Assembly (NCBI GenBank): GCA_964538685.1
Contig: CAZIFD010000002.1
Coordinates: 13,255 to 77,254 of the forward strand
DNA from: an uncultured Bdellovibrionales bacterium
Lineage (GTDB): Bacteria; Patescibacteriota; Minisyncoccia; Moranbacterales; UBA2206
Reading direction: 5' to 3'
Length of the DNA: 64,000 nucleotides
In this document: positions 2,395 through 28,690 of the stretch, in pieces
Position numbering within the stretch: the first letter of the stretch is position 1
Layout of the letters: the number at the start of each line of letters is the position of its first letter
Program-made: the position numbers and the translations under genes
Notes under the pieces: generated by a model
Told to the model about the DNA's origin: nothing
What the model saw: the letters and a program-made list of their open reading frames with translations, nothing else
Database searches by the model: none

Positions 2395-3024
2395 TTATCT
2401 GAAAAGCAGGCTTTCTTCGATAATTTTGTCTTTTATTTCTTCATAATACCCATAGTCATTTCTTTCATATTTTCTAAAAATTGCCCAACTGACAAAATCC
2501 ACTGCCTGCAGACATTTTTCCGTATGAGATGCTTTAATTTTTATTTCAATTCTCCCATTATTCCCTCTTTTCACCAGATTGTCCTTCAAATATTTTTCAA
2601 AGTTCTCCCTGATAAATTTATTCGTATCTTTTTTGTCTATATAAAGACTGATTGGCTCATCAATCCTGATAAGTCTCCTGTTATGCAACCGATCTAATAA
2701 TATGTTAGCAGTATAGTTGTATAGATAGTTTTTCTGACTTTGCAGATCTACATAAACTTTCTTTTTGTTTAAAACAACGCAGAGTACCTTCAAATCATCT
2801 AGTTCGCACAATTTCCTCAGCATCCTATGTTTTGTGATCGCATCAGAATGATAGGCATGCAACTCTCTTAGCTTGTATTTCTTCTTTAGCCCTCTCCTAA
2901 TATTTTTGATAACCTTTTCAATTTTCTTGTGATCGTTAGTCAAGACAATCGTAAAAAGAAACCATTTACTTGAAGTTTCTTTAAAACCAAGATCTCCGCT
3001 CTCGTCTAAAAATATATGCGCCAT
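2395..3024 (-). CDS. DUF3800-family protein
   Basis: N-terminus MAHIFLDESGDLG matches the hallmark DUF3800 start (hIDESG). Size 209 aa. Spacing and orientation suggest co-transcription with the HD gene upstream. Confidence 0.55.
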   Translation of the reverse strand: MAHIFLDESGDLGFKETSSKWFLFTIVLTNDHKKIEKVIKNIRRGLKKKYKLRELHAYHSDAITKHRMLRKLCELDDLKVLCVVLNKKKVYVDLQSQKNYLYNYTANILLDRLHNRRLIRIDEPISLYIDKKDTNKFIRENFEKYLKDNLVKRGNNGRIEIKIKASHTEKCLQAVDFVSWAIFRKYERNDYGYYEEIKDKIIEESLLFR

Positions 3025-3033
3025 TTTTATTTA

Positions 3034-3582
3034 CTATTTCTTTATAAACTTTTCAACCCACCTATTAAATATTTTCACCTTATCGTCACCAAACTTTAAC
3101 GCTTCAGCCCTGATCATTTCAGGACTTTTTTCTTTAGATAAAAATTCTTCGTTTTTTGTAAAGAATTTATCTGCAAAACAAACTATTTTTTCCTCTACGG
3201 AAATTGGGATCATATCCCTTTTGGGGATGGGTAACTTTTGTTTTTCAATATCTTTTATCGAAATTCCTACTCCCATATGTCTTTCACAAACTAATGCATG
3301 CTTTGGGAAACCCTCTTTTTCCAAAATTTCTCTACCCAAATATCCATGACAAATGTAAGGTTCTTTTCCGAAGCATCCAATTTCCGGAGTATTAGTCAAA
3401 AAGATCCCAATATCATGAAGCATGGCAGATTCCTCAATAAATTTTAAATCAGGATTAAGATGAGAAACATTTTTTCCAATTTCAACAGCTTTTTTAGCAA
3501 CCGCCTCACTATGTTTTACTAAAAATTTATAAGCTTTAGAATCTACCTGGTAATATTTTTGGATTATCTTTAATGGATCCAT
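3034..3582 (-). CDS. HD-domain phosphohydrolase
   Basis: HD motif ...AMLHDIGIFL..., plus downstream His/Asp residues (HGYLGREIL, CFADKF). 182 aa. Confidence 0.7.
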   Translation of the reverse strand: MDPLKIIQKYYQVDSKAYKFLVKHSEAVAKKAVEIGKNVSHLNPDLKFIEESAMLHDIGIFLTNTPEIGCFGKEPYICHGYLGREILEKEGFPKHALVCERHMGVGISIKDIEKQKLPIPKRDMIPISVEEKIVCFADKFFTKNEEFLSKEKSPEMIRAEALKFGDDKVKIFNRWVEKFIKK

Positions 3583-3780: not shown

Positions 3781-3916
3781 GGGCAAATGAGACACCAGAC
3801 AGCCCTTGTCTTATTTTGGAGAAATAAGACGGTAACCTGTTTCATTTAGACATTGCTACTTATCTATAAACTTTGGTAGAATATAATAGGAAATAAGCAA
3901 TTTAATCAAGTTAAAC

Positions 3917-4546
3917 ATGATATATATAAAAGAAGATTCCATTGTAGATGCTTGGAAAAAAAGCATTAAGGAGCTTTATTTAAAAGGCATAGAATCACAA
4001 AAAGGAGAATTTTATAGATTTTCACATGCTATTATTGAAATCTCAAACACAACATCTAAAGATACATATGATGAAAATTTTCCAATGTCTAAAGAAAGTA
4101 TTGATATCATTAACAATTATCTCTTAACAGGAGAAAATGAAGACAAGGTGATTCATGATTGGACAAAAATTTATAGAAACAGGCTATTTGCAAAAAAATA
4201 TAATCAAATAAAACAAATCATCGAATATCTTAGAAAAAAACCCACTGGAAAACGCGCACAAGCTTCAATTTGGAATCAAGAAGTAGATTTGTACGGAAAA
4301 ATCAGCCCATGCCTTCAATTATTGTGGTTTCAAATAATCAATGGAAAACTTGAAATGCATACCCATATGCGAGCAACGGATTGCTATGGAAAACTTCTTA
4401 TGAATATTAACGAATTTATTACATTGCAAAATTTTATTGCTAAAAAATTAGAATTAAAAAGTGGACTCTATGTTCAATTTATTGACTCACTTCATTTTAA
4501 TTCAAACGATAAAGAGCTAATAGATAATCTCCTAGAAAAAATTTAA
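3917..4546 (+). CDS. Compact thymidylate synthase-like / dNMP hydroxymethylase-like enzyme (209 aa)
   Basis: Alignable by eye to the ThyA core: RAQASIWN (ThyA RRIIVSAWN), ISPCLQLLWFQ (ThyA APCHAFFQF, catalytic Cys), NGKLEMH (DGKLSCQ), RATDCYGKLLMNINEFITLQ (RSCDVFLGLPFNIASYALL), DSLHFNSND (DTHLYSNH). It lacks the N-terminal segments of full-length ThyA. Confidence 0.65.
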   Translation: MIYIKEDSIVDAWKKSIKELYLKGIESQKGEFYRFSHAIIEISNTTSKDTYDENFPMSKESIDIINNYLLTGENEDKVIHDWTKIYRNRLFAKKYNQIKQIIEYLRKKPTGKRAQASIWNQEVDLYGKISPCLQLLWFQIINGKLEMHTHMRATDCYGKLLMNINEFITLQNFIAKKLELKSGLYVQFIDSLHFNSNDKELIDNLLEKI

Positions 4547-4634
4547 AGCCCATGCACAGTTTGTGCTACATGAGCTTTTGTTGGTTATTTTGGTTGTTTT
4601 CAATAAGCTTTCACATCCCCACAATTGGGAAATA

Positions 4635-5192
4635 TTAGAGGCTGTTCAGGTAGTGCTCGTAGATGACTTCGGCAAGTTCCTGATCGCTGCCCTCATGCGT
4701 CGTTACGCACAAGCTGAAATATCCATCGTAGAAGCCCTGATGAAATGCTTGTAGCTCATCTCTGGCTTCAGTAATTCTAGATCCATCCTTATCGCGATTG
4801 TCTTTTGCCAATCTTTTTTCCAATTCCTCGAGAGAGGGTGGAAGTAGATAGACTACACACAATCGGCCTGCAAACGCTTTGGTCATTATGCCTAACCGAT
4901 TCACTGGCCAATCCAAGACTGGAAAGCGTAATTCGTTTAGGGCTGTGGTAATGGGGACGATCGGAGTTGCGTATCGTATGCCATACTTCTCGTTTACCGT
5001 GAGAAATTCTCCGCGTTTAATCATCTCGTTCATGGCGTCATCAGAGATGCAGATTTTGTCTGTTTCACCATCTCTGAGCGTTCTTGTCATATACGGAGAA
5101 ATGTACACAAAGCGCTTATCTAGTTTACAAAGTTGCACTATGATAGTGCTTTTTCCGACGCCTGAAGCACCCAGCATATGTGCTTGCCCCAC
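4635..5192 (-). CDS. Guanylate kinase-like nucleoside-monophosphate kinase
   Basis: Walker A GASGVGKST; SPYMTRTLRDGE resembles Gmk S-TTR-PR-GE; LLPPSLEELEKRL resembles Gmk ILPPS-ELDRRL. The local GC is visibly higher than in flanking DNA. Confidence 0.7.
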   Translation of the reverse strand: MGQAHMLGASGVGKSTIIVQLCKLDKRFVYISPYMTRTLRDGETDKICISDDAMNEMIKRGEFLTVNEKYGIRYATPIVPITTALNELRFPVLDWPVNRLGIMTKAFAGRLCVVYLLPPSLEELEKRLAKDNRDKDGSRITEARDELQAFHQGFYDGYFSLCVTTHEGSDQELAEVIYEHYLNSL

Positions 5193-5241
5193 CCTCTCAG
5201 TGCGCGCACAAAAGTCCGCCCACTATGCGGACGGCTCCCAT

Positions 5242-7461
5242 TTAATTCTGAGTCGCAGTATTAGAAAACTGTTCTTCAAGTATTTGATAATGTTCGGGAA
5301 ACACAGTTTTCATCATCTCAAGCAAATACTTAATATTTTTTTGTGCCTCTGGCGCTAACGAAGGATCAAAACCATCACCAGTGATATGTGATTGATCGTT
5401 GGTAAACTTATAGATCGCAGTTTTTTTATCCTCGTCAAAAACAAGTTTTTCCATTTTCTTGTACGGATTTTCTCCATTCGGTACTCTAAACATTAAAAAT
5501 GTATCAAGGACTTTTCTGGCAACATTCGGTATATGGTAAACAGAGGCAATGCTCCCATCAGTTTCAAATGTATATAAAACCTTAAACAAGTAGTGGTACT
5601 CACTCTCATGGTCTCTCAATTCTTTATCGAGTTCTGAAATAAACGCTGTTCTTCTATCGGTTGTAGAATACTGATTTTTAATCATGTAATACTTATGACC
5701 GCTAGTTCTATTTAGCCAATTCAAGATAAGTTTCAGAAAATTGAAGTTGTGTGTAAAAATGAAAACTTGTTTTGCATCTTTTACCGCATTCTTTAGAAAG
5801 GCAAAGGCTTGAAAAAGTGAATTTGAATCAAGACTTGAGATAGGATCGTCTACAACTATTATGCCATTCGCTACATCAAAATTTTGGTCTTTCAAATGCA
5901 CAACAAAATACACAAATGCAATAGCTGTTTTCTCACCTTCGCTTAAATTCTTTGCAATCACGCCACTACGCTTGACAACATAACCACCCTCAGGAGTTAC
6001 TTCGAAAGTAATCTCATTTCTACCTAAAAATGTTTGTAGTCGTTTATTAAGTGTATCGCATGCTTTATGTTCAGACGAAATCTTGTTTTTGTTTTCAGTT
6101 ATTTTTTTCTTTAAGGCTACAATTCCAACAAAAGCTGACGGTTCATCACCATTTTGAAGTTTTGAAATTTCTTTTTCACACTCTTTAATTTCCGAATCAA
6201 AGGTTTTTACTTCATCAAAAATTTCACTCAAATGGTGTGCTTTCAATAATTCAACGGCTCTGTCTTTCTCTGTTTGGAAATTATCACTCTTTTGATTATG
6301 TTGCTCTATGGTCTCATTTACAGAATCAACGGAAGATTGAAAATTGTTGCTCAATGATCTTGAAAAAGTCACTTCCTCTGTAGTCTTTTGTTTTTTGGAA
6401 TTCAAAATTTCAACCATAGCCGACAATTCGGCGCAGTAGTTATCTTTTTCTTGATTGTAAGTTATAGATCGTGATGTAAACGATGTCTGTAAATCGGTAT
6501 AGAATTGAGCTTTGTTTGGCAATTGAATTGCTTTAATCGTCTGAATAGACTGCTGGAGATTAGTGATTTTCGTGTCTATTTTCTCTTTTAACTTTTTATC
6601 TGCTTCATTGAAATGACCAAGCAATGCTTCAATTCTACCTTTCGGCAAATCTGAACCACAGAATTCGCATTGCTCACTCTCTTTTGTGTGTAAAGTTAGT
6701 CCATGTTCAACCCACGCTGAAATCTCTTGACTCTCGGCAAGTCTACTAATGACATTTATTTCAACGGTTTCTTTGCAAATACCTATAACTTCATCATAGA
6801 CACCAGACAAATCTAGGTCTGAAGTAAGATTGATTTTTGTTATTTTATCTTTCTGCTCCTGTTTAATGACTGCCTGTTGTTTAGCAACCTCATCGGCACT
6901 TAAAATTTTCTTTTCTGTGATAGATTCAAAATCTTTTTCAGCGTCTGGTTTTCTATAATTTCTTGTAGATGATCCAACGAGATTTGCTCCAATAACTTTT
7001 GCTACTTCGGTAAATTTGTTGGCTTTATCAGATTCTTTTCTTGTTTTCTCGGTTTCTTTGGCGCTTTTTTGAGTTTCAAGATTGGCTAAAGTTTCTTCAT
7101 CAGTTTTGATCTTATCGGCAATCTCTTTATTTTCCTCTCCGAGAATAAAAATAGGGTTTGCCTTGCCACTCACTAACTGCACATTTTTCTGTATGTAGTC
7201 CTGATTGAAAACTCGTATTTTTTGATTGAATTGAGAGTTTTCTTTTACAGTTCCACTCTCGTGTTCAATATCATATTCTAAATCGGAAAACTCTAGCGAA
7301 TTACCGTCTTCAAGACACGCAAATAATTTTGATAAGGTTGTTTTTCCTGAGCCATTCCAACCATAAAAAAGATTGTATTTATCAAAATCATTCAAATTAC
7401 TATCCCATGTGTAATCAGAGAATAATCCAAGATTTTTAATTTTTTTTAGCTTCTTTATCAT
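5242..7461 (-). CDS. RloC/AAA_13-like ABC ATPase with a coiled-coil insert and a CxxC zinc-hook-like motif (candidate anticodon-nuclease-type abortive-infection protein)
   Basis: Walker A GWNGSGKTT. Long Lys/Glu-rich coiled coil containing CEFCGSDLP. ABC signature LSEGEKTAIAF. Walker B IIVVDDPISSLD. C-terminal ~200 aa domain. It overlaps the 3' end of the upstream MTase gene by 26 bp. Confidence 0.55.
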   Translation of the reverse strand: MIKKLKKIKNLGLFSDYTWDSNLNDFDKYNLFYGWNGSGKTTLSKLFACLEDGNSLEFSDLEYDIEHESGTVKENSQFNQKIRVFNQDYIQKNVQLVSGKANPIFILGEENKEIADKIKTDEETLANLETQKSAKETEKTRKESDKANKFTEVAKVIGANLVGSSTRNYRKPDAEKDFESITEKKILSADEVAKQQAVIKQEQKDKITKINLTSDLDLSGVYDEVIGICKETVEINVISRLAESQEISAWVEHGLTLHTKESEQCEFCGSDLPKGRIEALLGHFNEADKKLKEKIDTKITNLQQSIQTIKAIQLPNKAQFYTDLQTSFTSRSITYNQEKDNYCAELSAMVEILNSKKQKTTEEVTFSRSLSNNFQSSVDSVNETIEQHNQKSDNFQTEKDRAVELLKAHHLSEIFDEVKTFDSEIKECEKEISKLQNGDEPSAFVGIVALKKKITENKNKISSEHKACDTLNKRLQTFLGRNEITFEVTPEGGYVVKRSGVIAKNLSEGEKTAIAFVYFVVHLKDQNFDVANGIIVVDDPISSLDSNSLFQAFAFLKNAVKDAKQVFIFTHNFNFLKLILNWLNRTSGHKYYMIKNQYSTTDRRTAFISELDKELRDHESEYHYLFKVLYTFETDGSIASVYHIPNVARKVLDTFLMFRVPNGENPYKKMEKLVFDEDKKTAIYKFTNDQSHITGDGFDPSLAPEAQKNIKYLLEMMKTVFPEHYQILEEQFSNTATQN

Positions 7462-8245
7462 AATTTTTTTGATCTATAAAACCCTGTATTCTATTTCTTG
7501 CAAGATCGACATATTTCTCATCTTTCTCGATACCAAGCCATTTGCGACCAAGTGCTTCCGCAACAACAGCAGTTGTTCCGCTTCCCATAAAAGGATCAAA
7601 AACAATGTCGCCTTTGTTGCTAGAGGCTAAAATCACTTGTTGTATAAGTTTAAGAGGTTTTTGTGTTGGATGTGCTTTTATTCCGTTTTCGTCTTTAAGT
7701 CTTTCATTGCCCTTACAAAGACCAAAGACCCAATCTGTATCTTTCATTTGTTTTCCTCCATTCAGTTTTTTCATAAATTCATAATTGAAAGTGTATTTTT
7801 TGCAATCTTTATTTTTTACAGACCAAATCAAAGTTTCGTGATTGTTTGTAAATCTGCGACCATTTAAATTTGGCAGGGCATCAGTTTTCACCCAAATAAC
7901 ATCATTTAAAAACCAAAGTCCGAGATTTTGCATTATTGTGCCAACACGAAAAATATTGTGATACATCCCAATAATCCAAAAAGTTCCTGTTGGCTTTAAA
8001 ATTCTTTGACATTCACTAATCCAAGCATGAGTGAAACTGTCATAATGTTCATAACTTTCAAAGCTATCCCATTCATTATTAACTGGGATAATCTCTGAGC
8101 CGTCGGCTCGTTTTAATCTCTTACCTTTTGGAAGTTGTAAATAATATGGAGGGTCTGCAAAAATTAAATCGACAGAATTATCTGGGATTTTCTTTATTTC
8201 CTCAATACAATCACCATGTATAATTTTGCCAAAATATTTTTCCAT
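7436..8245 (-). CDS. Beta-class amino-DNA methyltransferase (N6-adenine or N4-cytosine), DpnA-like in size
   Basis: Motif IV DPPY (LIFADPPYYL) precedes motif I (VFDPFMGSGTTAVVA), which is the beta-class order. 269 aa. Confidence 0.85.
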   Translation of the reverse strand: MEKYFGKIIHGDCIEEIKKIPDNSVDLIFADPPYYLQLPKGKRLKRADGSEIIPVNNEWDSFESYEHYDSFTHAWISECQRILKPTGTFWIIGMYHNIFRVGTIMQNLGLWFLNDVIWVKTDALPNLNGRRFTNNHETLIWSVKNKDCKKYTFNYEFMKKLNGGKQMKDTDWVFGLCKGNERLKDENGIKAHPTQKPLKLIQQVILASSNKGDIVFDPFMGSGTTAVVAEALGRKWLGIEKDEKYVDLARNRIQGFIDQKNYDKEAKKN

Positions 8246-8247
8246 AA

Positions 8248-9369
8248 CTAAAAATTGTAGATGACAAGGTGTTCAACATCTCTATCGTTTCGACCTTTTA
8301 CATTATAGAGATAGGTTTTATCAAATCTATCAATTTTTATTCCTTTTCTATTTTTATATAAGCTAGAAATAAAAGGCGTGTCTTTAATAATCAAAATGAA
8401 TTTCGCTTTTGTTTCATAAAGACATTTTGCCAGACGCTCCTGATCTTTTTTGTCAAAAGTTGCTTTTTCGTAATCACTGAAATCAGTATCGTATGGTGGA
8501 TCAAGAAAAATAAAATCTTTTTCAGTGAATTTATATTCATTAAAAATTTTCTCAAAATCTTGATTTTTAATGACCGTATTCTTAAAAAGTTTTTTTACTT
8601 CATCGCTAAAAATATGATCTACTTTGCTTCGAAAGTCTTTGTTGTTATAAGCAATACCACCATAAGGAATATTGAAATGACCACTACTGTTAAATCGAAA
8701 CATTGAAGCGTAGCAAAATTCACGAATGAAGTAGTAATTTGCAATTTTTTTAGGAAGACTCGTTGGAAACTTGCTTCCGTTGTAATTCATAACATCACGA
8801 AAGTGCATATAAAAACCGCTTCGGAAAGCTGTTTCAATATTTTTTTGCAAATCACCCTCCGGTAATTTACCTCTTTGTTTCTCAATCTCTCTCGTTCTAG
8901 AAATTTTTGAAATAAGGTTTGAGGAAATTTGCTTTAATAAATTTTGCTCGTCTAAACAGAAATCTTTATGAAAAAGCCCATTAAAACGCTCCTCTTCCTT
9001 TTTCAGAATTGTATTTACTTGTTTTGATAGTTCTATTTTTGAAATTTCATCGTGCCTATATAACTCATAAAGTTTTATAATTTTATTTTCAAATACACTG
9101 ATATATTTGGGAATTTTTTCCCAGTTATTGACATAATTGTATAACTCCCTTTTAAAAACCTCTCTTTGTTTACCTTCTTTTAGTAGAGTATAAAAATCTG
9201 TTAGTTCAGAACAAATATCATTGATGATTGATTTTTTGGGCTGTAATTGAAAGAAAATTGCACCACCACCAAAAAACGGCTCGATATAACGATCAAAAGC
9301 TGGAATTAAATCCTTTATGTAAGGATATTCTTTTGTCTTGCCACCAGGCCATTTTATAAGTGTTTGCAT
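8248..9369 (-). CDS. Dam-like (alpha-class) N6-adenine DNA methyltransferase
   Basis: N-terminus MQTLIKWPGGK...FFGGGAIFF (Dam-family motif I), then FLDPPYDTDF (motif IV) later. Confidence 0.85.
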   Translation of the reverse strand: MQTLIKWPGGKTKEYPYIKDLIPAFDRYIEPFFGGGAIFFQLQPKKSIINDICSELTDFYTLLKEGKQREVFKRELYNYVNNWEKIPKYISVFENKIIKLYELYRHDEISKIELSKQVNTILKKEEERFNGLFHKDFCLDEQNLLKQISSNLISKISRTREIEKQRGKLPEGDLQKNIETAFRSGFYMHFRDVMNYNGSKFPTSLPKKIANYYFIREFCYASMFRFNSSGHFNIPYGGIAYNNKDFRSKVDHIFSDEVKKLFKNTVIKNQDFEKIFNEYKFTEKDFIFLDPPYDTDFSDYEKATFDKKDQERLAKCLYETKAKFILIIKDTPFISSLYKNRKGIKIDRFDKTYLYNVKGRNDRDVEHLVIYNF

Positions 9370-9370
9370 A

Positions 9371-10198
9371 CTAGTCTAAATAAGTTTCTTTTATCGATTC
9401 GAGTGCTGATGTAATAAGGTGTGCGTTTTCTTTATATGTTTCCAAAACTATGTCGTAACCATCATCCGACTTACAGACAAAATTCCAAAAATCTTTTCCA
9501 ATCAAAAGTTCATCTTTTGAAAAAAATTGTAGAACCCGTCCTTGTTTCCATTCTTTATCTTCGCCAAACCTATTATAAGCAGTTGCAAAGTAAGCCTTTA
9601 TTTTTGCATCTTTTCCTAAAGCATTTGAGAGAATTGCATATTGCTCAAAAATAGCTTCCTTTTCAGATCGTGCTTTTTTGTTATCTAAATCTCCCCCTAT
9701 CTTCAACTCAATTAAATGATGAGTATTTGTTTCTTTATCAATAAGATAATAATCACTCACATGGACTTTTGATTTTAGTTTAGAATTTGGACTGGGTTTT
9801 ATTCTTCTTATTTCATCGTAATGAGATAATTGTGGGACTAGAGGATTTTTTGTGTTTTTATAACCTTCCAAAAGTTCGGCTATTTTTGATGTCTGTTCTG
9901 GATATAAATTTCCTTCAACACTTTTATTCACTTCATAAAAGAGTTTAGCAATATTGATAGCCATTCCCTCAAGCATATTTCCAAGAGAGCTATCTAAAGA
10001 ACGAACAAGGGCAGAATAATACTGAATATCTAAACCGAGGGCGGCGATAAAGACATTGTGAATTTTCATATTGATAACCCCATTTGGATTATCAACCTCT
10101 CCTTCATGTCTTGCCTTAAAACCAGTTGCATACGATTCCACTGCTGTCCTAACAATGGATTTTATAGCGTCTTTTTTGTTTAATGTGTTTTTATTCAT
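9371..10198 (-). CDS. Putative Type II restriction endonuclease (inferred from its position in the operon)
   Basis: 275-aa ORF sits immediately between the C-protein gene and two DNA MTases, with a 1-bp gap to the next gene. ...LIELKIGGDLDNKKARSEKE... may hold the PD-(D/E)xK-type catalytic core. The organisation mirrors DpnII-type cassettes (Dam-like MTase + second MTase + REase). Confidence 0.45.
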   Translation of the reverse strand: MNKNTLNKKDAIKSIVRTAVESYATGFKARHEGEVDNPNGVINMKIHNVFIAALGLDIQYYSALVRSLDSSLGNMLEGMAINIAKLFYEVNKSVEGNLYPEQTSKIAELLEGYKNTKNPLVPQLSHYDEIRRIKPSPNSKLKSKVHVSDYYLIDKETNTHHLIELKIGGDLDNKKARSEKEAIFEQYAILSNALGKDAKIKAYFATAYNRFGEDKEWKQGRVLQFFSKDELLIGKDFWNFVCKSDDGYDIVLETYKENAHLITSALESIKETYLD

Positions 10199-10203
10199 AA
10201 TAA

Positions 10204-10488
10204 TTATTTTAAAAGTTGATCTACGCTCACACCAAGCACTTTGGCGACCTTTTCCATTGTGCTAATTGTAAGATTTTGTTTGCCATTCTCAACATTACTA
10301 ATATACGCTCGGTCTAAACCTAACTCTCGGCAAATGTCGCCTTGCGACATGCCTTTTTCGAGTCGTATTTTTTTCATGTTTTCGCCAAATTTTTGTGCTG
10401 TGGTTTTTGCCATATTGTATGAAAACTTATCAACATGGTTATTATAGCACTCTCTTGTGTTTTGACTCAATGTTAAGTTATAATACAA
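10204..10488 (-). CDS. XRE-family HTH regulator (RM controller C-protein candidate); the true start is probably the internal Met at 10413 (MAKTTAQKF...)
   Basis: HTH: IRLEKGMSQGDICRELGLDRAYISNVENGKQNLTISTMEKVAKVLGVSVDQL. It is the first gene of the RM operon, consistent with C-protein architecture. Confidence 0.6.
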   Translation of the reverse strand: MYYNLTLSQNTRECYNNHVDKFSYNMAKTTAQKFGENMKKIRLEKGMSQGDICRELGLDRAYISNVENGKQNLTISTMEKVAKVLGVSVDQLLK

Positions 10489-10518
10489 GTGTGCAAAACA
10501 GTATTTTTATGAAGCGTC

Positions 10519-10612
10519 GGAACCAAAACCAAAAATTTTCCTTTCCATTTTTTGCCGGCTCCCCCACACCCCCCGCTGAAAGAGGAATTGTAAGGAAATT
10601 TTTGGTTTTGGG
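10519..10612. promoter_or_regulatory. Large inverted repeat (about 21-22 bp arms, ~50 nt spacer) between the C-protein gene and the serine recombinase gene
   Basis: 'ggaaccaaaaccaaaaattttcctt' (10519-10543) matches the reverse complement of 'aaggaaatttttggttttgg' (10592-10612) with one indel. A C-rich spacer and the GC palindrome 'ggcgcgaagcgcc' (~10748-10762) follow. Confidence 0.5.
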
Positions 10613-10819
10613 ATCGCGACCGAAGGGAGCGTGCGAGGCGCAAGTATCATTCGTCAAAATCCTGCGGATTTTACCCGAAATACATTCGAACTTTGTCCAA
10701 TACACACCGCCAAAATTGAAAATCGGAATCGGAAGCAAAAATGCGGTCGGCGCGAAGCGCCGTCTGTTCTGAATTCCCCCCAAAAAATCCTGAATCTGAA
10801 AGGGTTCGCCAATACAATT

Positions 10820-12394
10820 ATGAATAATCAAACCAAAAAATTTTTCATTTATACTCGCAAGTCTACGGACGACAAAGACAGACAAGTCCGCAGTATTTCT
10901 GACCAATTAGCTGAGCTGAAAAGTTTAGCGTTAAAAGAACAACTGGAAGTGGTAGATGTCTTTGTCGAAAAGCAGACCGCCAAAATACCAGGTCGGCCAG
11001 TGTTTAACGAAATGTTGGAGCGAATGGAGAAAGGCGAAGCGACTGGTATTTTGGCATGGCACCCCGACAGATTGGCGAGAAATAGTGTTGATGGTGGAAA
11101 AATTATCTACCTCGTTGATACTGGTGTAATTTCCGAAATGAAATTTCCAACTTTTTGGTTTGATCCGACACCGCAAGGCAAATTCATGCTTTCAATCGCT
11201 TTTTCGCAATCCAAGTATTATGTGGACAATTTAAGCGAGAATATAAAGCGTGGTAAGCGAAACAAAGTGAAAGACGGAATATGGCCTCAAATGTCTCCGC
11301 TTGGATATGTGAATAAAAATAGAAAGATTGTTCCCGATGAAAATATCGCACCCTTAATCAAGAAAACATTTGAGGCATATTCGTCTGGGTCTTTCACTTT
11401 GCGCGAACTTCGTGACAAATTTAACGGACTTGGATTGAAGCGAAAAAGCGGAAAGGAACTTGCGGTGTCGAATTATCAAAAACTTCTCAAAAATCCTATT
11501 TACACTGGTCTAATGCTCTACAACGGAGAGATTTTTGAGGGCAAGCACGAACCGATTATCACAAAGAAGCTTTTTGATTCTGTTCAAGAAGTGATGATGA
11601 GAAAATCTCAACCGAAAGGAAAAGGACTAAAGCCATTTTTGTATAGAGGATTTTTCCGTTGTGGGGAATGTGGCTGTTTCATTACCACCGAAACGCAGAA
11701 AGGTCATAACTATTTGCGATGTACCAAACGGAAAAATCCCTGCTCACAAAAATATGCTCGCGAGGAAATCATCACTTCAGAAATTCAAAAGGAAATCAAA
11801 AAAGTTTCTTTGCCAGACGATTGGGCTTCTTGGATGTTAGTGGAAAACGAAAAGGATAAATTGGTGGAAGCCCAATCGTCTACGCTTTTTGCAGACAACA
11901 CAAAAGCCGAAATTTCTCTTTTGGATTCCAAGATTGAGAAGCTGATGAACGCCTATTTAGAGAACATACTTTCGCTAGAAGAATATCGGGATGTTAAAAG
12001 TGCGTTAGTGAACCAAAAACAGCTTCTCAAAGAGAAATTATCGGCTTTTGAGCAAAAAGCGAATAATCGGTTCGAACTTGCCGAAAAGTTTTTAAAATAC
12101 AATGTGGAATTGGCAAACGAGGGAATAAATGAAGAGAAACTTCATTTATTCAAAAAAGTCGGTTCGAACTTTATTATTGAAGCTCGAACCGTACTTTTTG
12201 AGCCACGCGGAGCGTGGAAAAACCTTTTGAATTCGGGAATTCTTGGCGGGAATGCATTTGTGTCGGCGCTTCGCGCCGACCGCATTTTTGCTTCCGATTC
12301 CGATTTTCAATTTTGGCGGGCTACTCGAGTTAAGTACCCACGATATACAAGCATTGTAAGGCTTTTTGAGCGATCTGTAAATGGTTGGATTTAA
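10820..12394 (+). CDS. Large serine recombinase (integrase)
   Basis: Start reassigned to MNNQTKKFFIYTRKSTDDKD (resolvase catalytic-Ser motif YxRxST). Recombinase domain, Cys-rich zinc ribbon (CGECGCF...CTKRKNPC) and C-terminal coiled coil. The track ORF begins upstream at 10631. Confidence 0.85.
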   Translation: MNNQTKKFFIYTRKSTDDKDRQVRSISDQLAELKSLALKEQLEVVDVFVEKQTAKIPGRPVFNEMLERMEKGEATGILAWHPDRLARNSVDGGKIIYLVDTGVISEMKFPTFWFDPTPQGKFMLSIAFSQSKYYVDNLSENIKRGKRNKVKDGIWPQMSPLGYVNKNRKIVPDENIAPLIKKTFEAYSSGSFTLRELRDKFNGLGLKRKSGKELAVSNYQKLLKNPIYTGLMLYNGEIFEGKHEPIITKKLFDSVQEVMMRKSQPKGKGLKPFLYRGFFRCGECGCFITTETQKGHNYLRCTKRKNPCSQKYAREEIITSEIQKEIKKVSLPDDWASWMLVENEKDKLVEAQSSTLFADNTKAEISLLDSKIEKLMNAYLENILSLEEYRDVKSALVNQKQLLKEKLSAFEQKANNRFELAEKFLKYNVELANEGINEEKLHLFKKVGSNFIIEARTVLFEPRGAWKNLLNSGILGGNAFVSALRADRIFASDSDFQFWRATRVKYPRYTSIVRLFERSVNGWI

Positions 12395-12421
12395 GGTGTT
12401 TGGGTCGGGGTCTAAAACAAG

Positions 12422-12472
12422 AATGAGACAAATGAGACACTAAAAGGGTGTCTCGCACCTCTGTCTCATTTG
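12422..12472. repeat. att-like imperfect palindrome about 30 bp downstream of the recombinase stop
   Basis: Tandem 'aatgagaca' x2 (12422-12439), 'gtgtctc' (12448-12454), 'gtctcatttg' (12463-12472). 'caaatgagacac' also occurs at 3784-3795. Confidence 0.35.
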
Positions 12473-12510
12473 CTATACTTGATTATTTATGGTCTGATAT
12501 GAAGTTTTGA

Positions 12511-13218
12511 TTAGTAGGGTCTGAAATAAGATATTTCGCCAGTTTCAGAGTCTTGAACAACGTTCTCAATCCTACGCTTATAACCGAGAAAAACATCCTC
12601 ATCAAGTGAATGAGCGTAAAGAGATCTAAGTCCTCTCGCTCTATATTCAAGACTAAAAAAGAGGTAGGTCGTGAATGAACCAGTAAATCGATAGCAACGA
12701 ACACAAGTTTCCAGCTGATCCTCTAATTCAGATTCATATCCCTTCCAAGAGAATAAGCAAGGAAAACTCTCAATCCAATAACCAACGGTGAATTTAAGAA
12801 GTGAAATAATTTCTTGTTTAGCCGACAAATTTCCTTTTTGAGAAATTCTTACCAAAGCAATGCTGATGTCGTTTCTTATTTTTCTATCCTCAGAATCCTG
12901 CGGTGACAAAAAGGTATATCTTTTATCTTTGTATTTTTTGAGAATCAAATTTACTTCTTTTTTACTGCGATACCATTTTAATGCCTTCCATTGCTTTTTA
13001 GTTTTGCTGTGTTTGCAAGTCCATTTTTTCTGAAATTTTTTATCCAGCTTACTTACGATTTTATCCCAATCAATATCGCCAATTTCATTTTTTAGATTTT
13101 TCCAGATGAATCTATAAATACGGGGCGCATTTGTATATATCCAAGAACTACTTATTCTTGGGGGTTGCTTTTCTAAAAGAAGTTTATTGAGATCTTTGAT
13201 TACTTGATTGAAATCCAT
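12511..13218 (-). CDS. Hypothetical protein (235 aa, basic, W/K-rich)
   Basis: Clean ORF with no recognisable motif; possibly phage-derived. Confidence 0.35.
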   Translation of the reverse strand: MDFNQVIKDLNKLLLEKQPPRISSSWIYTNAPRIYRFIWKNLKNEIGDIDWDKIVSKLDKKFQKKWTCKHSKTKKQWKALKWYRSKKEVNLILKKYKDKRYTFLSPQDSEDRKIRNDISIALVRISQKGNLSAKQEIISLLKFTVGYWIESFPCLFSWKGYESELEDQLETCVRCYRFTGSFTTYLFFSLEYRARGLRSLYAHSLDEDVFLGYKRRIENVVQDSETGEISYFRPY

Positions 13219-17641: not shown

Positions 17642-20557
17642 CTAAAATTTCTTTATGATAATATCCACAAGCCTATTCATGAATTTAGGAAAATCTTTCA
17701 CAGTAAACTTTTCCCTATAATCTCTCAGGATAAGCTCCTGTAGTGTTTGTTTTATGTCTTTGATAAACGTATCTCGCTTAGAAGATTCTTGCCATCCAGC
17801 ATCCGTATCATCTTCAATCCTTGCTCTCAGCTCTTTTACAAAATCTTTGATATCATTTTCTTGGGCATCGGAAATAAATTCTTGAGAAATAACATAAAGA
17901 GCATATTCTCTTAAATCCATCCCCAGATTTTTAGCTTCTTCTCCCTTTGTTTTAATATCTTTCATCAATTCTTCATAGCGTCGGATACGCTCTGCCAAAT
18001 CAATCTGATTCTGTTCAAATTCACGGCGAATTGCTCCAAGCCTTTCACTAAATTTCTGATACGCCGGATCCTCATCAAGATTGATAGAAATTTCTTGTTT
18101 CAGCATCTTTTCAAGATTGAGGGCTTTTTCCTCATCACCCATATCCTTTAGGCGTTCCAGCGTATAAAGCTCATTGACTTTAAGCTCACGAAAGTTTTTT
18201 GTGATACCCTCATAGTCTATAATATTACTTTCTCGAATAAGATTCTTAACTTTTTCTCCATACTCTTCCAACAAATAACGATCATCTTCACTACGAAAAT
18301 CTTTCAAAAATGCCAAATAGAAACTTGTTACCCATTCAAAAGGTCGAATATATTGTTTCAGGAACGGATCGGGAGAAAGAAATTCAAACAAGCTTTTTAG
18401 TTTGGCATATTTTTCGGCAAAATATTTTTGCTTGTCTTGATTGTCGATGAAAATCTTCAAACATCTGCGAAGATTATCCATTGAAGGATCTTCGATGTTA
18501 ACTCCTGTAAAAATTTTCATAACGTCGTTCATAACATCAGAAAATTTCGCCTTCACTCGTTCGATATCGATCATAGCCGAATCAATTACATCCTCGTCAA
18601 AGTCCAAAGCATTATAGAGATTTCTGGTAATTCCGTAATAATCAATGATTTTCCCAGCTTCCTTGTTTTTATAAACCCGATTCGTTCTGGCAATCGCCTG
18701 CAGGAGATTATGATCACGTAGGGGTTTATCAAGATACATCACTTGTTCAATTGGCGCATCAAAACCAGTTAACAACATATCGCACACAAGCAAAAACTTT
18801 AGAGATGAATTCGGATCTTTGAACTTTTCAATAATCTGCTCCCGCTCTTTTTTGCTGGTATTATAAATTTTCAAATCGTCAGCATCACTATTTGGATCCC
18901 CAGGAGAATACACAACCGCTGACCATTCTGCCGGAACGAGCTTGTCAAACAATTTTCTATAATCTGCCACCGCTTCGCGATCATAGGCAACTACCTGTGC
19001 CTTGAAACCATTTGGCTCAACATACAATTTATAATGCTCGACAATATCTCTTGCAACTGCCTCCATTCTTTTTGGAAGCTTTACTAATGCCGCCTTCTTG
19101 CCATATTTCTTTACCAATTCCGTCTTTTGTTTGTCAGACAAGTCACTCGCAATCTCATCGAATTGCTTATCTAGCTTCTCTTCATCAATGGAAAATTTAG
19201 AAAGACGTGCCTCGTAGGTAACTGGGATTGTCGCTCCATCATCAATGGCCTCTTGAATTGAGTAATAATCCAGATAGCGTTTTCCTTCACCTTCATAATT
19301 TCTGAAAGTGTTGGTATGAGTTTTATCTACTGGTGTGCCGGTAAACCCAAAGAAGAATGCTTTTTTGAAAGCATTTCTCATGTTTATTCCTGAAACTCCC
19401 TCATCTCCACGATGAGCCTCATCGGAAAGAATTATTACATTCTCATCCAAATTTTCGACTTCGTTGCCAAGCTCCGAAAACTTTTGAATAGTCGTGATAA
19501 ATATTCCGCGTTCCGGTGATTGTATTTTTTCTTCCAAGTCTTTTCGCGAGGTAACACGGACAATATTTTTTCCTCCGGCATTGGTAAAAGTATCAAATAT
19601 TTGTTGATCCAAGTCTACTCGATCCACCAAGATGAAGATTTTTGGATTTTGCAATAATTTATTAAAACGCAATTTCCAAGCCGTAAAAAACATTGTGAGA
19701 GTTTTTCCTGAACCTTGTGTGTGCCAAATAAGCCCTTGGTGTTTTTCCTTGTTCACTACACGATTAACAATCTTATTTGTGGCTCTTAGTTGTTGATAGC
19801 GAGCAATCTTTTTAACCAGTTTCTCTTTTTCTTTTTCAAACAAAATGAAATTTCCGACAATATCCAATAGATTAGGCTTGTTAAGTAGAACAAAGAGAGT
19901 CATTTCCAATTCCCCTCCCAGTTCTTTTTCCAAGTCCTCGTCTCGCCACTGTAAAAAGTATTGTTTTGGCGCATAAGTTGCTCCGTAAACAGTTTTTAGT
20001 CCGTCACTGGCAATATTAAAGCAGTTTGGGAAAAATAATTTGCGTGCCACTTTTTCATATCTTTTAATCTGATCAATTCCATTCTCAAAGGTCACACTTT
20101 CCGAAGCAGTTGGGCTCTTAGCTTCAATATCAACTAGCGGCAGACCATTTACAAAAATCATGACATCCGGTCGGATGTTTTCGGTGTCACCTTCGAAATA
20201 GAATTGATTAGTGGCAACAAAGTGATTATTTTCAGGATTTTCAAAATCAAGTAATTTATAATCCTGCATTTTTCCAGTCTTTGAACTTTTCAAGTTGATT
20301 CCTTCGCGCAAAGCCTTTAGAAATCCTTCATTAGTGTCAATTTTGTTTACTTCTCTAACTACACTGACAATCTCATCATCATTTGCGTCAGGATTATTTT
20401 TTTTGATTGCATTCTCAAGTAAGGACTTTATTATATATTCACTTTCAAGACTCCTAAGTTTTGAAAATTCTTCGGGTTTAATATATTCATAATCAAGTTT
20501 GTCTTTTATGAATTTGATTATGTAATTTTCAATTGTTACTTGTTCGTTAAATTTCAT
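17642..20557 (-). CDS. hsdR: Type I restriction enzyme R subunit
   Basis: N-terminal nuclease region. SF2 helicase motifs TQGSGKTLTM (motif I) and ILSDEAHRG (DEAH). 971 aa. Confidence 0.9.
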   Translation of the reverse strand: MKFNEQVTIENYIIKFIKDKLDYEYIKPEEFSKLRSLESEYIIKSLLENAIKKNNPDANDDEIVSVVREVNKIDTNEGFLKALREGINLKSSKTGKMQDYKLLDFENPENNHFVATNQFYFEGDTENIRPDVMIFVNGLPLVDIEAKSPTASESVTFENGIDQIKRYEKVARKLFFPNCFNIASDGLKTVYGATYAPKQYFLQWRDEDLEKELGGELEMTLFVLLNKPNLLDIVGNFILFEKEKEKLVKKIARYQQLRATNKIVNRVVNKEKHQGLIWHTQGSGKTLTMFFTAWKLRFNKLLQNPKIFILVDRVDLDQQIFDTFTNAGGKNIVRVTSRKDLEEKIQSPERGIFITTIQKFSELGNEVENLDENVIILSDEAHRGDEGVSGINMRNAFKKAFFFGFTGTPVDKTHTNTFRNYEGEGKRYLDYYSIQEAIDDGATIPVTYEARLSKFSIDEEKLDKQFDEIASDLSDKQKTELVKKYGKKAALVKLPKRMEAVARDIVEHYKLYVEPNGFKAQVVAYDREAVADYRKLFDKLVPAEWSAVVYSPGDPNSDADDLKIYNTSKKEREQIIEKFKDPNSSLKFLLVCDMLLTGFDAPIEQVMYLDKPLRDHNLLQAIARTNRVYKNKEAGKIIDYYGITRNLYNALDFDEDVIDSAMIDIERVKAKFSDVMNDVMKIFTGVNIEDPSMDNLRRCLKIFIDNQDKQKYFAEKYAKLKSLFEFLSPDPFLKQYIRPFEWVTSFYLAFLKDFRSEDDRYLLEEYGEKVKNLIRESNIIDYEGITKNFRELKVNELYTLERLKDMGDEEKALNLEKMLKQEISINLDEDPAYQKFSERLGAIRREFEQNQIDLAERIRRYEELMKDIKTKGEEAKNLGMDLREYALYVISQEFISDAQENDIKDFVKELRARIEDDTDAGWQESSKRDTFIKDIKQTLQELILRDYREKFTVKDFPKFMNRLVDIIIKKF

Positions 20558-20964
20558 AATTTTTTGCTTAAGAGAAAGTCGACTATTTCTAAGCCTTCAT
20601 TGTATTTATCGCAAATTTCTTCTTCCAATTTACTATAATCATCTTTTTCAATAATTGTATGCACTATATTATTTCTAAAATCAATATAACTATTAAGACT
20701 TTCGAATTCTTTTTTATTCAAATAACTAGAAACACGCGATTCACGTGCGGCTTGACCAAAATTTCTTGGTGCTTTTAATCCAACTATTTTGTTTTTCTTA
20801 TTGCATTCACAACTAAATTCCCGTATTAATCCCTCGATGACACTGGCCTGCAAAAGAAAAGCCTGTATAAATCTAGGTTCTTGATCTTCATCTGGAGCAA
20901 ATAAGAAGTCTCCTTGAGCTCTGTTTATTAGCAACTTTGCATTTTCAACAATTTCTTTTTTCAT
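20554..20964 (-). CDS. Hypothetical small protein with an HEPN-like Rx4H motif (DFRNNIVHT)
   Basis: 136 aa, typical HEPN size. Located between hsdS and hsdR. Overlaps hsdR by 4 bp. Confidence 0.35.
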   Translation of the reverse strand: MKKEIVENAKLLINRAQGDFLFAPDEDQEPRFIQAFLLQASVIEGLIREFSCECNKKNKIVGLKAPRNFGQAARESRVSSYLNKKEFESLNSYIDFRNNIVHTIIEKDDYSKLEEEICDKYNEGLEIVDFLLSKKL

Positions 20965-20966
20965 AT

Positions 20967-21260
20967 CTACTTTTTCAGCAGTCTGTTTCTAGGTGGTTTT
21001 TCTTGTTTAATAATTTTCTTTTCCAATATCTCAGCCTTTTCGACAGTTCCCGTTTCAATAACTCTAAAATTTGTACCACCTTTAAACTGACCTTTATGCT
21101 CGTAAACTCTATCTCCAAGACGACCCGCCTTTGCTTTTCCAACATAAAGCAACTCGTCTTTAGCATTTACTATTTTATACACACCAGCACTTTTACCAGA
21201 CAATTTTTCTACGTTTGTCTTGGTGATTTGTCTCTTTGGACTGAAGCTTTGTTTCTTCAT
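20967..21260 (-). CDS. Small standalone GIY-YIG nuclease-domain protein
   Basis: GVYKIVN...LLYVGKA...RLGDRVYEH...EKAEILEKKII...PPRN matches the GIY-YIG core (GIY, YIG, Arg, His/Glu, C-terminal E..LI..P.N). 97 aa. Confidence 0.7.
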   Translation of the reverse strand: MKKQSFSPKRQITKTNVEKLSGKSAGVYKIVNAKDELLYVGKAKAGRLGDRVYEHKGQFKGGTNFRVIETGTVEKAEILEKKIIKQEKPPRNRLLKK

Positions 21261-21347
21261 AGATTTTTTATTAATTTATTATTTACCCTAACTTCCCAAC
21301 TCAAAGATCTTGCGTCAGACCTTTTTTTGAGTTGAGCAGTTTAGATT

Positions 21348-22094
21348 TTAACTTTTAAATTTTTTTCTTATCATATTAAAAATTTTATCTGAAAATTTTT
21401 CAAAAGAATTTCTTGCCTCTTTATAGTCAGCCTCTTTCAGCTTAATCGGATCATTAATATTATATCTTTTTTTAATCTCTATATTCCTGATTTGCTTTAA
21501 AAACTTATCATCAATTATCGCTGCATTATGAATTATTACGTTTCGCAAAGCTTGATACTCAATAAGTTTATTCTTCAATTCATCTTCGACAATTAAATCA
21601 AGATGCAAATATTCTTTCAAGAAATTAATAGTGCTTTGTAAGTCTTGGAAATTATATTTTTCTCTTAAAGATGATCCGATTATCAAGCTGCCTATTGTTG
21701 GAGATGAATATTTTAAAATATTTGGATCAAAGCTAATTTGCTTTTTTTCCGGCCAATTAATTATATCAGGATAATTATCTATGATATTTTTAATCAAGTC
21801 GTTCATAAATGACTCGAATGTAGCAATTACTAAAACAACTGACTGGTTATAAATAATCTTGTATTTTTCAATCAATATGGGATGGTTTTTGATATTTCTT
21901 ATCTGATCAATAACGATATCTAATTTTTGCTTGTAGGGTAAAAAAGCAGACATCCTTTCGTTTTCTCTTTTTAGGTTTCCAAGCATTTCCAAAAGAATAT
22001 TTCCCGCGTCTGAGCCAATTTCGCTTAATTGATCAATTTGTTTAAGATTATTCTTAAAAGTTTCTAAAACATTATTGATTTTTTCCATATACAC
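21348..22094 (-). CDS. Hypothetical protein with an HEPN-like Rx4H motif (ALRNVIIHN)
   Basis: 248 aa. Overlaps the hsdS 3' end by 23 bp. No other recognisable domain. Confidence 0.35.
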   Translation of the reverse strand: MYMEKINNVLETFKNNLKQIDQLSEIGSDAGNILLEMLGNLKRENERMSAFLPYKQKLDIVIDQIRNIKNHPILIEKYKIIYNQSVVLVIATFESFMNDLIKNIIDNYPDIINWPEKKQISFDPNILKYSSPTIGSLIIGSSLREKYNFQDLQSTINFLKEYLHLDLIVEDELKNKLIEYQALRNVIIHNAAIIDDKFLKQIRNIEIKKRYNINDPIKLKEADYKEARNSFEKFSDKIFNMIRKKFKS

Positions 22095-23271: not shown

Positions 23272-23275
23272 AATG

Positions 23276-24864: not shown

Positions 24865-24890
24865 ATTTTTAGCAAATTAGTTTTTTAGAG

Positions 24891-28414: not shown

Positions 28415-28690
28415 AGTTATGATTTACAAAATTTATGTTTTTTCTTACCTTTTCATATGTTAGCACGACAACTTTAATCTTGTCAATACTTTTTACAAAA
28501 ATTCTGATGATTTCATAGGTTATTATATTTAAGTGCTATTGAGCAGAAAGACACTCTTTTTGTAAGTTTATGAGGATTTAAGGCTATTTAAAGCCAATAA
28601 GTTATCAACAGGTAACCTACTTGGGACGCTCTGGACTCTTTCATGAGAGTGCGTCATTCATTGAGTTGTAACAAATAAGACCAAAATCCT

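Follow-up and report, generated by a model that had tools for sequence, protein, structure and literature searches.

The window analysed here is a stretch of 64,000 nucleotides from a contig (CAZIFD010000002.1) of an uncultured member of the Patescibacteriota, and it carries a pair of convergent genes 88 nt apart. One, at 3917..4546 on the forward strand, is an intact compact gene of the thymidylate synthase (TS) family, encoding 209 aa from an ATG start; it was identified from the list of open reading frames (ORFs), Pfam, NCBIfam, AlphaFold and a family alignment. The other, at 4635..5192 on the reverse strand, encodes a nucleoside monophosphate (NMP) kinase of the guanylate kinase (Gmk) fold, 185 aa long from a GTG at 5192 or 180 aa from an ATG at 5177 (ORF list, Pfam, blastn and alignments). 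The spacer between them (4547..4634) holds no terminator-like site; it is conserved in position in relatives, where it lies inside a continuous blastn block with the related loci L009 and L010. A preliminary description of the region, which placed both ORFs correctly, considered the two to be a possible module for nucleotide modification or depletion, assembled from separately acquired genes within a defence island. We think it rather likely that the pair is instead housekeeping-type nucleotide metabolism that borders a defence island, and that the kinase, the last gene of a four-gene operon, was clipped by that island.

The TS-like protein matches Pfam Thymidylat_synt (PF00303) with E = 3.8e-15 and 56.2 bits against a gathering score of 24.3, the alignment being limited to profile positions 105-224, the C-terminal half. 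The preliminary description held that N-terminal TS segments were missing. This is correct in part: the NCBIfam profile TIGR03283 (thy_syn_methano) covers it nearly end to end (positions 3-198 of 201, E = 6e-28), and the structure prediction that the description had proposed gave an AlphaFold (AF2) model with a complete compact TS fold (pLDDT 95.2). The model superposes end to end on a 217-aa TS homologue (template modelling (TM) scores 0.83/0.80), and Foldseek gives a probability of 1.00 against many TS structures, which places the protein in the TS superfamily. Most of what the protein lacks by comparison with E. coli ThyA consists of loops and of ~40 residues at the C-terminus. Despite the full-length alignment, the score against TIGR03283 is 97.7 bits where the trusted cutoff is 174.55, and the ThyA equivalogs of NCBIfam give 44-53 bits, below their cutoffs of 108-427. 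The best matches in the Protein Data Bank (PDB) are the flavin-dependent dCMP hydroxylase AfhB and the CMP hydroxymethylase MilA (TM 0.83), and canonical ThyA structures reach TM 0.73-0.79; all structural matches share about 17-20% identity with the protein.

Homologues of the TS-like protein number 69 and are ~205-212 aa long, the named ones coming from Patescibacteria (Andersenbacteria, Parcubacteria, Dojkabacteria). A scan of GTDB species-representative genomes, in which the best match to the window TS was 60% identical, contributes scattered members from Bacteroidota, Planctomycetota, Melainabacteria, Bdellovibrionota and two DPANN archaea. Among 2.9 million viral contigs there was no close relative, only distant canonical phage TS (28-37% identity, in the C-terminal part), and a phage origin of the gene was rejected on this result. 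Judged by its sequence, the ORF is an intact member of a compact (~209 aa) TS family of Patescibacteria and DPANN that is related to the methanogen type. The region upstream of the gene (3852..3916, forward strand) is also conserved, with DNA homology to L010 beginning at ~3852 by blastn. It contains a promoter-like site at 3853-3882 (TTGCTA, an 18 nt spacer, TG and TAGAAT), which is a match to the consensus only.

The likely chemistry of the enzyme can be read against a residue code for TS homologues published in 2026 (PMC13326640). In E. coli numbering, it takes C146 as the catalytic residue and reads the substrate at 177 (Asn for dUMP, Asp for dCMP) and the product at 143, where a bulky hydrophobic side chain gives a methyl and D/E a hydroxymethyl group; D169N marks hydroxylases (PMC13326640). 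With the offset taken from PDB alignments, the code residues of the window TS are C132 (146), N163 (177), I129 (143) and D155 (169). Its key residues further include Lys112/Arg113, Arg152, His193, Tyr86 and Trp82. Over 21 family members C132, R152, D155, N163 and H193 are invariant, and I129, K112 and R113 nearly so. The catalytic cysteine and the basic residues that bind the dUMP phosphate in the superfamily (E. coli R126', R127' and R166) are thus found as C132, K112/R113 and R152, and the combination expected of a dUMP-methylating enzyme (Asn177, hydrophobic 143, Asp169) is present as well. The residues of the other chemistries are not: hydroxymethylases of the T4 gp42 and MilA type have Asp/Glu at 143, plus Asp177 for cytosine, where the window TS has I129 and N163, and flavin-dependent 5-hydroxy-dCMP synthases of the RB69 gp48/AfhB type have Asn169 with Asp177, where it has invariant D155 and N163. 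More distant short TS homologues, recovered by a profile search of 1.8 billion representatives, do carry D/E/H at 143 or the N169 + D177 pair, so the code discriminates within the superfamily. Under it, N163, I129, D155 and C132 would make the window TS a uracil-nucleotide C5-methylase, i.e., a thymidylate synthase.

The ORF therefore reads as a dUMP-methylating enzyme, not as a hydroxymethylase or hydroxylase. Of the resemblances that the preliminary description had suggested, the one to minimal archaeal TS-like enzymes holds and the one to phage dCMP/dUMP hydroxymethylases does not, the code residues being Asn, Ile and Asp. It had also recognized the catalytic block (I129-S-P-C132) and the WNP-like motif (S117-I-W-N120-Q), but its R-x-D is actually R-x-x-D (R152-A-T-D155; compare R166-S-C-D169 of E. 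coli). In the reaction that we propose, Cys132 would attack C6 of dUMP, whose phosphate would be held by Lys112/Arg113 and Arg152 and whose uracil face would be read by Asn163. Ile129 would exclude water, so that C5 would receive a methyl and not a hydroxymethyl group, and the product would be dTMP. The synthesis of dTMP has been stated to be part of the minimal repertoire of Patescibacteria (PMC12455944), which is consistent with a housekeeping role for the window TS. The folate side of the active site is less conventional. The folate-contacting D-V-F-L-G-L-P-F-N of ThyA is replaced by an invariant D-C-Y-G-K-L-L-M-N, and the folate-binding features (the C-terminal lid and L172/G173/F176) are lacking, the protein ending at about E. 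coli residue 223.

With Pfam Guanylate_kin the kinase has a match of 50.1 bits (E = 3.4e-13; gathering score 25.2), as its preliminary description as a Gmk-like P-loop kinase would lead one to expect. Against the guanylate-kinase equivalog TIGR03263 it scores 72.3 bits, and the cutoff there is 160.45. Its residues were placed by alignment with yeast Guk1, the numbering of which reproduces the published ligand positions. In that numbering the family retains K14, R38, R41, E44, Y78, D98, R131 and R146, and the equivalents of the P-loop, NMP-phosphate and lid residues among these (K14, R38, R41, R131, R146) are found in all 16 sequences aligned. The residues that recognize GMP, on the other hand, have been swapped in every one of the 16: S34 to P, Y50 to K, E69 to T, V, A, I or L, and D100 to P. 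Since the guanine-binding residues are all replaced, the window kinase is not gmk. The preliminary description had allowed that it might be the housekeeping gmk, and the altered pocket, together with the score below the equivalog cutoff, speaks against this. As far as the alignment tells, it is a Gmk-fold NMP kinase with a different base pocket. With the ATP- and NMP-phosphate-binding machinery kept and the base pocket remodelled, it would phosphorylate an NMP other than GMP, and from context the substrate is most likely a pyrimidine nucleotide of the same pathway, e.g., dTMP or UMP. A PhnN-like role as ribose-1,5-bisphosphate kinase was considered and found unlikely; the match scores 31-45 bits, less than that to Gmk, and the kinase has kept the second NMP arginine.

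The preliminary description took the two genes to have been acquired separately and to sit in a mosaic. Comparison with relatives contradicts this. By blastn, window 3918-5174 aligns with L009 as one block of 1259 bp at 71% identity that runs across the TS, the spacer and the kinase. The same convergent pair occurs in at least nine other distinct loci. In Andersenbacteria contigs, where the TS is 60% identical, the layout is again convergent and the kinase is the last gene of an operon; the same five genes, with different flanks, are present in contigs whose TS is 71% and 72% identical. The five-gene set is found also in two metagenome-assembled genomes (L013 and L014) and in one 541-kb contig. 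In a contig of the Nanobdellota (DPANN), the five genes are co-directional with overlapping ends, in the order GTP cyclohydrolase II (GCHII)-like protein, orotidine 5'-monophosphate (OMP) decarboxylase, kinase, TS and Zn protein. The TS and the kinase are old neighbours from a conserved nucleotide-metabolism cluster of the candidate phyla radiation (CPR)/Patescibacteria and DPANN, and the functional link between them that had been suggested earlier is supported.

The GC contrast from which separate arrival had been deduced is nevertheless real. The kinase has a GC content of 0.461 and a GC content at third codon positions (GC3) of 0.484, against 0.279 and 0.214 for the TS-like gene and 0.32-0.34 and 0.21-0.37 for the genes neighbouring the pair. 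At four related loci the GC content of the kinase is 0.455-0.465, while that of the TS-like gene is 0.34-0.39 and tracks the local background. As the nearer relatives show the same contrast, it has been inherited with the cluster and is no mark of separate arrival. In L001, L009, L010, L045 and L046 the kinase or operon keeps a GC content of ~0.46 and a GC3 of 0.40-0.52 over lineages with differing backgrounds; in L046 the operon is at 0.49-0.54 within a locus of 0.38. A fixed value of ~0.46 for the operon everywhere was considered and dropped. It holds for the nearer relatives only, the kinase being at 0.30 in L023, 0.33 in L044, 0.51 in L046 and 0.58 in L013.

A metagenome scan with the kinase family yielded 68 loci, and partner counts were made over those with enough sequence to tell. 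The conserved operon reads, in order of transcription, a small Zn protein of ~130 aa, a GCHII-like protein (GTP_cyclohydro2), a type-2 OMP decarboxylase and, as the last gene, the kinase. The OMP decarboxylase is directly upstream of the kinase in 46 of 50 loci, and the cluster includes the GCHII-like gene in 36 of 40 and the small Zn protein in 39 of 40. The partner counts over the 68 loci make the four-gene operon the core unit, and the compact TS a recurrent partner in one clade and in DPANN. The loci with an adjacent compact TS include all the closest relatives of the window kinase. In distant kinase loci the core consists of the GCHII-like gene, the kinase and the Zn protein, without the OMP decarboxylase.

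Of the partners, the OMP decarboxylase scores 165 bits against a curated pyrF type-2 cutoff of 110.6 and keeps the DxKxxD motif. The GCHII-like protein keeps the zinc ligands Cys54/65/67 of E. coli RibA, and also Arg128 and Lys154, whereas the ten copies examined, from four phyla, all have Leu, Met or Phe in place of Tyr105. The tyrosine of GCHII is needed for deformylation. Spoonamore et al. are said to have found, in 2006, that Tyr-to-Met variants of Streptomyces GCHII stop at the formylamino-pyrimidine intermediate, which we regard as a lead and not as a test. GCHII works in two steps via a formylamino-pyrimidine intermediate, which is then deformylated (PMC9478397). The small Zn protein has two invariant CxxC pairs. 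Its structural model is moderate (pLDDT 82) and has non-significant matches only, to beta-tent proteins: the RIG-I-like C-terminal domain, YPEL5 and bacterial cereblon, a domain that was solved with deoxyuridine bound. The matches being non-significant, naming a function of the Zn protein from its fold was dropped. Elsewhere the compact TS or the operon is also found next to a dCTP-deaminase-like protein, an NT5C-like nucleotidase, a PfkB kinase or Maf, and the gene context of both is consistently that of nucleotide, mostly pyrimidine, metabolism. GCHII-like genes adjoin the compact TS in four phyla. Outside CPR there are variant TS/GCHII associations: in the Bdellovibrionota locus L021 (5585-7393, forward strand) a 602-aa protein with two GTP_cyclohydro2 domains is beside the compact TS, and in the Melainabacteria locus L020 (6708-9757, reverse strand) a row of dCTP-deaminase-like, HAD phosphatase, SDR and GCHII-like genes is beside it. 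A search with Rfam for a riboswitch or other family that would point to a ligand gave none, either near the pair or at ten related loci. Full-text literature searches found nothing that describes this cluster or gene combination in CPR/DPANN, and those on MJ0757 and on URC1 as a GCHII homologue found nothing directly relevant.

The true junction of the mosaic is in the 5' end of the kinase and not between the TS and the kinase, since homology runs through the spacer and stops at 5173-5176. The blastn alignments with L009, L010, L001, L013 and L014 all end within these four positions. Together with the alignment of N-termini, they place a recombination junction at 5175..5180, where homology to the related operons gives way to island-derived sequence on the right. 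The N-terminus of the kinase family, M-x-x-K-F-L-L-L-L-G, is replaced in the window by M-G-Q-A-H-M-L-G; at least eight residues precede the P-loop glycine in 112 of the 114 family members. The original first ~6 kinase codons have been replaced. A terminator-like hairpin with a T-run (5214..5234, reverse strand; hairpin scan) comes directly after the stop codon of the neighbouring gene, which encodes a protein of the PDC-S06 family, and 22 nt upstream of the kinase GTG. As part of the island, the hairpin would shield the kinase from transcription coming from upstream. A scan of the kinase strand from the kinase start to 5400, where the scan ended, showed no promoter-like site. The annotation of the source genome calls the kinase as a protein of 151 aa from Met35, a form without the P-loop.

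The window kinase is otherwise an orthologue of its relatives (66-71% identity) that has become detached from the operon. No OMP decarboxylase, GCHII-like protein or Zn protein is encoded within the 64 kb of the window, and the other island ends (12380-12530, 28400-28700 and 30000-30320) show neither displaced operon genes nor the lost N-terminus of the kinase. From the stop in homology, the swapped N-terminus and the absence of the partners we infer that the island, or a deletion that accompanied it, removed the operon up to about kinase codon 6. Two adjacent serine-recombinase islands (~5180-30100) with defence systems would thereby have replaced three upstream operon genes and some six codons of the kinase. 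The window TS gene probably works. The kinase is probably a remnant without a promoter and with its first beta-strand damaged, and impaired or silent. In another locus, L110 (6001-6222 of an 85.9 kb metagenome contig), residues 6-77 of the kinase family are present alone, without operon partners; this fragment may be a second, independent truncation of the operon.

Several observations weigh against the reading of ordinary dTMP metabolism with a clipped kinase. Of the 68 loci, only 9 have the compact TS next to the kinase operon, and of the 46 in which 800 nt or more of sequence follow the kinase, 7 do; the primary role of the operon therefore need not be thymidylate synthesis. The cofactor pocket of the TS differs from that of ThyA in having an invariant Lys159 at the position of Gly173 and no C-terminal lid, and its nearest neighbours among solved structures are a flavin-dependent dCMP hydroxylase and MilA; these features make a non-folate chemistry possible. 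Tyr209 of E. coli, which contacts the 3'-OH, corresponds to Asn195 in the window TS and varies within the family, so that ribo- versus deoxy-specificity is not fixed by the sequence. Both the methyl product and the dUMP substrate are predicted from a code that was worked out with other TS homologues. The kinase also keeps a high GC3 although the genome is low in GC, for which selection on mRNA or codons, or repeated transfer, may be responsible. Finally, the kinase ORF is otherwise undamaged and keeps all its family-invariant residues, and translation from the GTG may let the residues AHML form strand 1 and leave the kinase active.

This last point bears on another view, that the pair still works as a minimal two-step unit, the TS making dTMP or another C5-modified pyrimidine NMP and the kinase, started at GTG 5192 or ATG 5177, phosphorylating it, with the insertion being neutral. 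We find this rather doubtful. The kinase ORF is open over the whole conserved length with all 34 family-invariant residues kept, a purine-rich stretch (GAGAGGGTGGGG) precedes ATG 5177, and in phages the pairing of a TS homologue with its cognate NMP kinase has been shown to be functional (PMC13326640). However, the conserved strand-1 motif KFLLLL is lost, the hairpin stands upstream with no promoter-like site on the kinase strand up to 5400, the depositor's gene call begins after the P-loop, and the kinase elsewhere almost always comes with its partners, the OMP decarboxylase being upstream in 46 of 50 loci. A broader proposal, which we regard as unlikely, is that the cluster serves an undescribed pathway whose chemistry is other than classical folate-dependent dTMP synthesis. 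The GCHII homologue lacking Tyr105 could supply a ring-opened formylamino-pyrimidine nucleotide as cofactor, one-carbon carrier or substrate, or there could be a URC-like route acting on uracil nucleotides. The GCHII two-step route passes through a formylamino-pyrimidine (PMC9478397), and the proposal would accommodate several oddities: GCHII-like genes beside the compact TS in four phyla, ten copies that keep the zinc cysteines, Arg128 and Lys154 and yet swap the tyrosine (L, M, F), a TS cofactor pocket with an invariant lysine and no folate lid, a kinase pocket that is not for guanine, distant loci that dispense with the OMP decarboxylase, and literature searches that turned up no account of the cluster. 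Against it, the basis is context and residue patterns, the core cluster encodes neither a reductase nor any other enzyme that a new one-carbon carrier would require, the OMP decarboxylase is above the pyrF cutoff with DxKxxD kept, in keeping with ordinary pyrimidine metabolism, most operon loci lack the TS, and the fold matches of the Zn protein are non-significant. In its fullest form, to which we give a small chance, the five genes would be a nucleotide pathway common to CPR bacteria and DPANN archaea, e.g., a thymidylate or other pyrimidine route that uses a GTP-derived formylamino-pyrimidine beside or instead of folate, and the window would hold a naturally broken copy.

The two functions raised in the preliminary description fare less well. 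A phage-like hypermodification pair, in which a dUMP/dCMP hydroxymethylase or hydroxylase and a dedicated dNMP kinase would bring a modified base into DNA, is quite improbable. In its favour, the TS-like protein comes nearest in fold to AfhB, a short dCMP hydroxylase, and to MilA, a TS homologue with a dNMP kinase is the classical phage arrangement, and restriction-modification (R-M) systems are nearby. But the TM to canonical ThyA is nearly as high as the 0.83 to those enzymes, the code residues are Asn163 and not Asp, Ile129 and not Asp/Glu, and Asp155 and not Asn, the TS family is chromosomal in Patescibacteria/DPANN with no close viral relative among the contigs scanned, and in relatives no glycosyltransferase or other downstream modification gene is beside the pair. 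That the pair works as part of the defence island next to it, for nucleotide depletion or for a self-protective modification, is highly improbable. It adjoins PDC-S06 and R-M genes, and in two relatives the kinase operon is likewise flanked by R-M or Gabija-like genes. Yet PADLOC-DB has no family that matches the TS-like protein or the kinase, while the neighbouring ORF matches PDC-S06; in relatives the pair is flanked by Ddl/Mur ligases, tRNA synthetases, response regulators and similar genes, and the cluster is conserved in such non-defence contexts. The junction with the island falls within the kinase and does not frame it, and the hairpin separates the pair from PDC-S06. The defence genes beside the operon also vary from locus to locus, which fits a variable-region hotspot and not a functional link. 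We conclude that the pair is not a defence or DNA-modification module and prefer the view of housekeeping-type metabolism bordered, and in part clipped, by an island.

The gene order to the right of the kinase puts the pair at the left edge of a ~25 kb composite island and not inside it. The first island (5242..12394; Pfam, PADLOC) begins with the gene of the PDC-S06 AAA_13 protein (5242-7461, reverse strand; PADLOC, E = 5e-253). On the same strand follow two DNA methyltransferases (7436-9369), a TdeIII-like restriction enzyme (9371-10198) and a helix-turn-helix (HTH) protein (10204-10488), and the island ends with a large serine recombinase (10631-12394, forward strand). The PDC-S06 gene shows a weak PrrC-like C-terminal match and overlaps the first methyltransferase by 26 nt; the layout of 5242-10488 recalls R-M-linked anticodon-nuclease systems of the PrrC/RloC type. 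Beyond the first recombinase are a ParB-methyltransferase and a type I R-M system on the reverse strand (17642-28414), made up of HsdR (17642-20557), HsdS (22072-23271) and HsdM with an N-terminal HTH/MerR (26714-28414). Within it are a SMODS + AGS_C nucleotide cyclase (24891-26195) and four ORFs without a Pfam match (21348-22094, 23276-24058, 24055-24864 and 26182-26727), all on the reverse strand; the cyclase and these ORFs may form a signalling module, CBASS-like or of another kind, inside the R-M locus. A second large serine recombinase (28691-30019, forward strand) is followed, after ~110 nt, by tRNA-Ser(GGA) (30131-30218, reverse strand) and then by ordinary housekeeping genes. The two recombinases are 16 kb apart and each is at the right end of a block of defence genes, which suggests two tandemly integrated islands; no att sites were identified. 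Elsewhere, type III or type II R-M genes come just downstream of the kinase operon in L044 (7596-13527) and L046 (8198-14564), and L046 has there also a Gabija-like AAA_15/OLD-TOPRIM gene. In several Patescibacteria, a variable or defence hotspot seems to lie next to the kinase operon.

Immediately to the left of the TS-like gene are a DUF3800 protein and an HD-domain protein (2395-3582, reverse strand), the latter most similar to the archaeal TIGR00295 family and below its cutoff. Further left, Rfam finds a LOOT RNA (RF03000; 757-884, forward strand) that covers the full-length model with 60.4 bits against a gathering score of 46.4; it is just upstream of a TylF-like methyltransferase ORF (951-2048). 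At 38449-45638, on the reverse strand, four consecutive large ORFs without a Pfam match (563, 279, 786 and 777 aa) are upstream of glycosyltransferase and methyltransferase genes and may encode cell-surface proteins.

In sum, what had looked like a candidate module for modification or depletion in defence is better seen as ordinary nucleotide metabolism clipped by a mobile island, and it should not be counted as defence or hypermodification. The window instance is of modest interest. The wider find is a tightly conserved gene cluster of Patescibacteria that forms a single operon in one DPANN archaeon, and this cluster deserves experimental work. Its members are unlike plain housekeeping enzymes: a TS without the folate lid, a "guanylate kinase" unable to read guanine, and a GCHII without its tyrosine. 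CPR and DPANN organisms are thought to depend on hosts for nucleotides. The product of the cluster, once known, would sharpen models of thymidylate and pyrimidine supply in ultra-small microbes, and would correct the automatic names "guanylate kinase" and "GTP cyclohydrolase II" for these genes.

Set beside known systems, the window TS shares with the methanogen type (TIGR03283) a length of ~200 aa and a TS fold without the long loops and the C-terminal extension of ThyA. Its family differs from that type in scoring below the cutoff, as a sister family and not an equivalog, in occurring in Patescibacteria, DPANN and scattered other bacteria and not in methanogens, and in often adjoining the GCHII-like/OMP decarboxylase/kinase operon. 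With canonical ThyA (E. coli, L. casei) it has in common the catalytic Cys, the phosphate-binding Arg/Lys and a hydrophobic residue at 143, and Asp169, Asn177, His207 and Tyr94 are also kept; it is, however, 55 residues shorter, lacks the C-terminal lid (E. coli ~224-264), and has an invariant Lys for Gly173, Leu for His147, Ala for Ser167 and Asn for Tyr209. The phage 5-hydroxy-dCMP synthases (RB69 gp48, DLP3 gp80 and AfhB of HY126, PDB 9iqu/9iqc) and MilA (PDB 5jnh) resemble it in fold (TM 0.83) and, in the case of AfhB with its chain of 217 residues, in compact size, and they work with a cognate NMP kinase. They carry Asp at N177, Asp/Glu at L143 and, in the hydroxylases, Asn at D169, where the window TS has Asn, Ile and Asp, and identity is ~20%. 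The window kinase shares with guanylate kinase (yeast Guk1, S. aureus Gmk 2j41) the fold, the P-loop, R38/R41, the lid arginines and Tyr78, but its family is embedded in a specific operon and not in the usual gmk context. The GCHII-like partner, similarly, shares with RibA (GTP cyclohydrolase II) the Zn ligands, Arg128, Lys154 and the TNNPKK motif, E. coli RibA being its best PDB match (E = 2.7e-20), and differs in lacking Tyr105, in an extra N-terminal extension of ~50 residues, in scores below the RibA cutoffs and in a cluster that has no other riboflavin genes.

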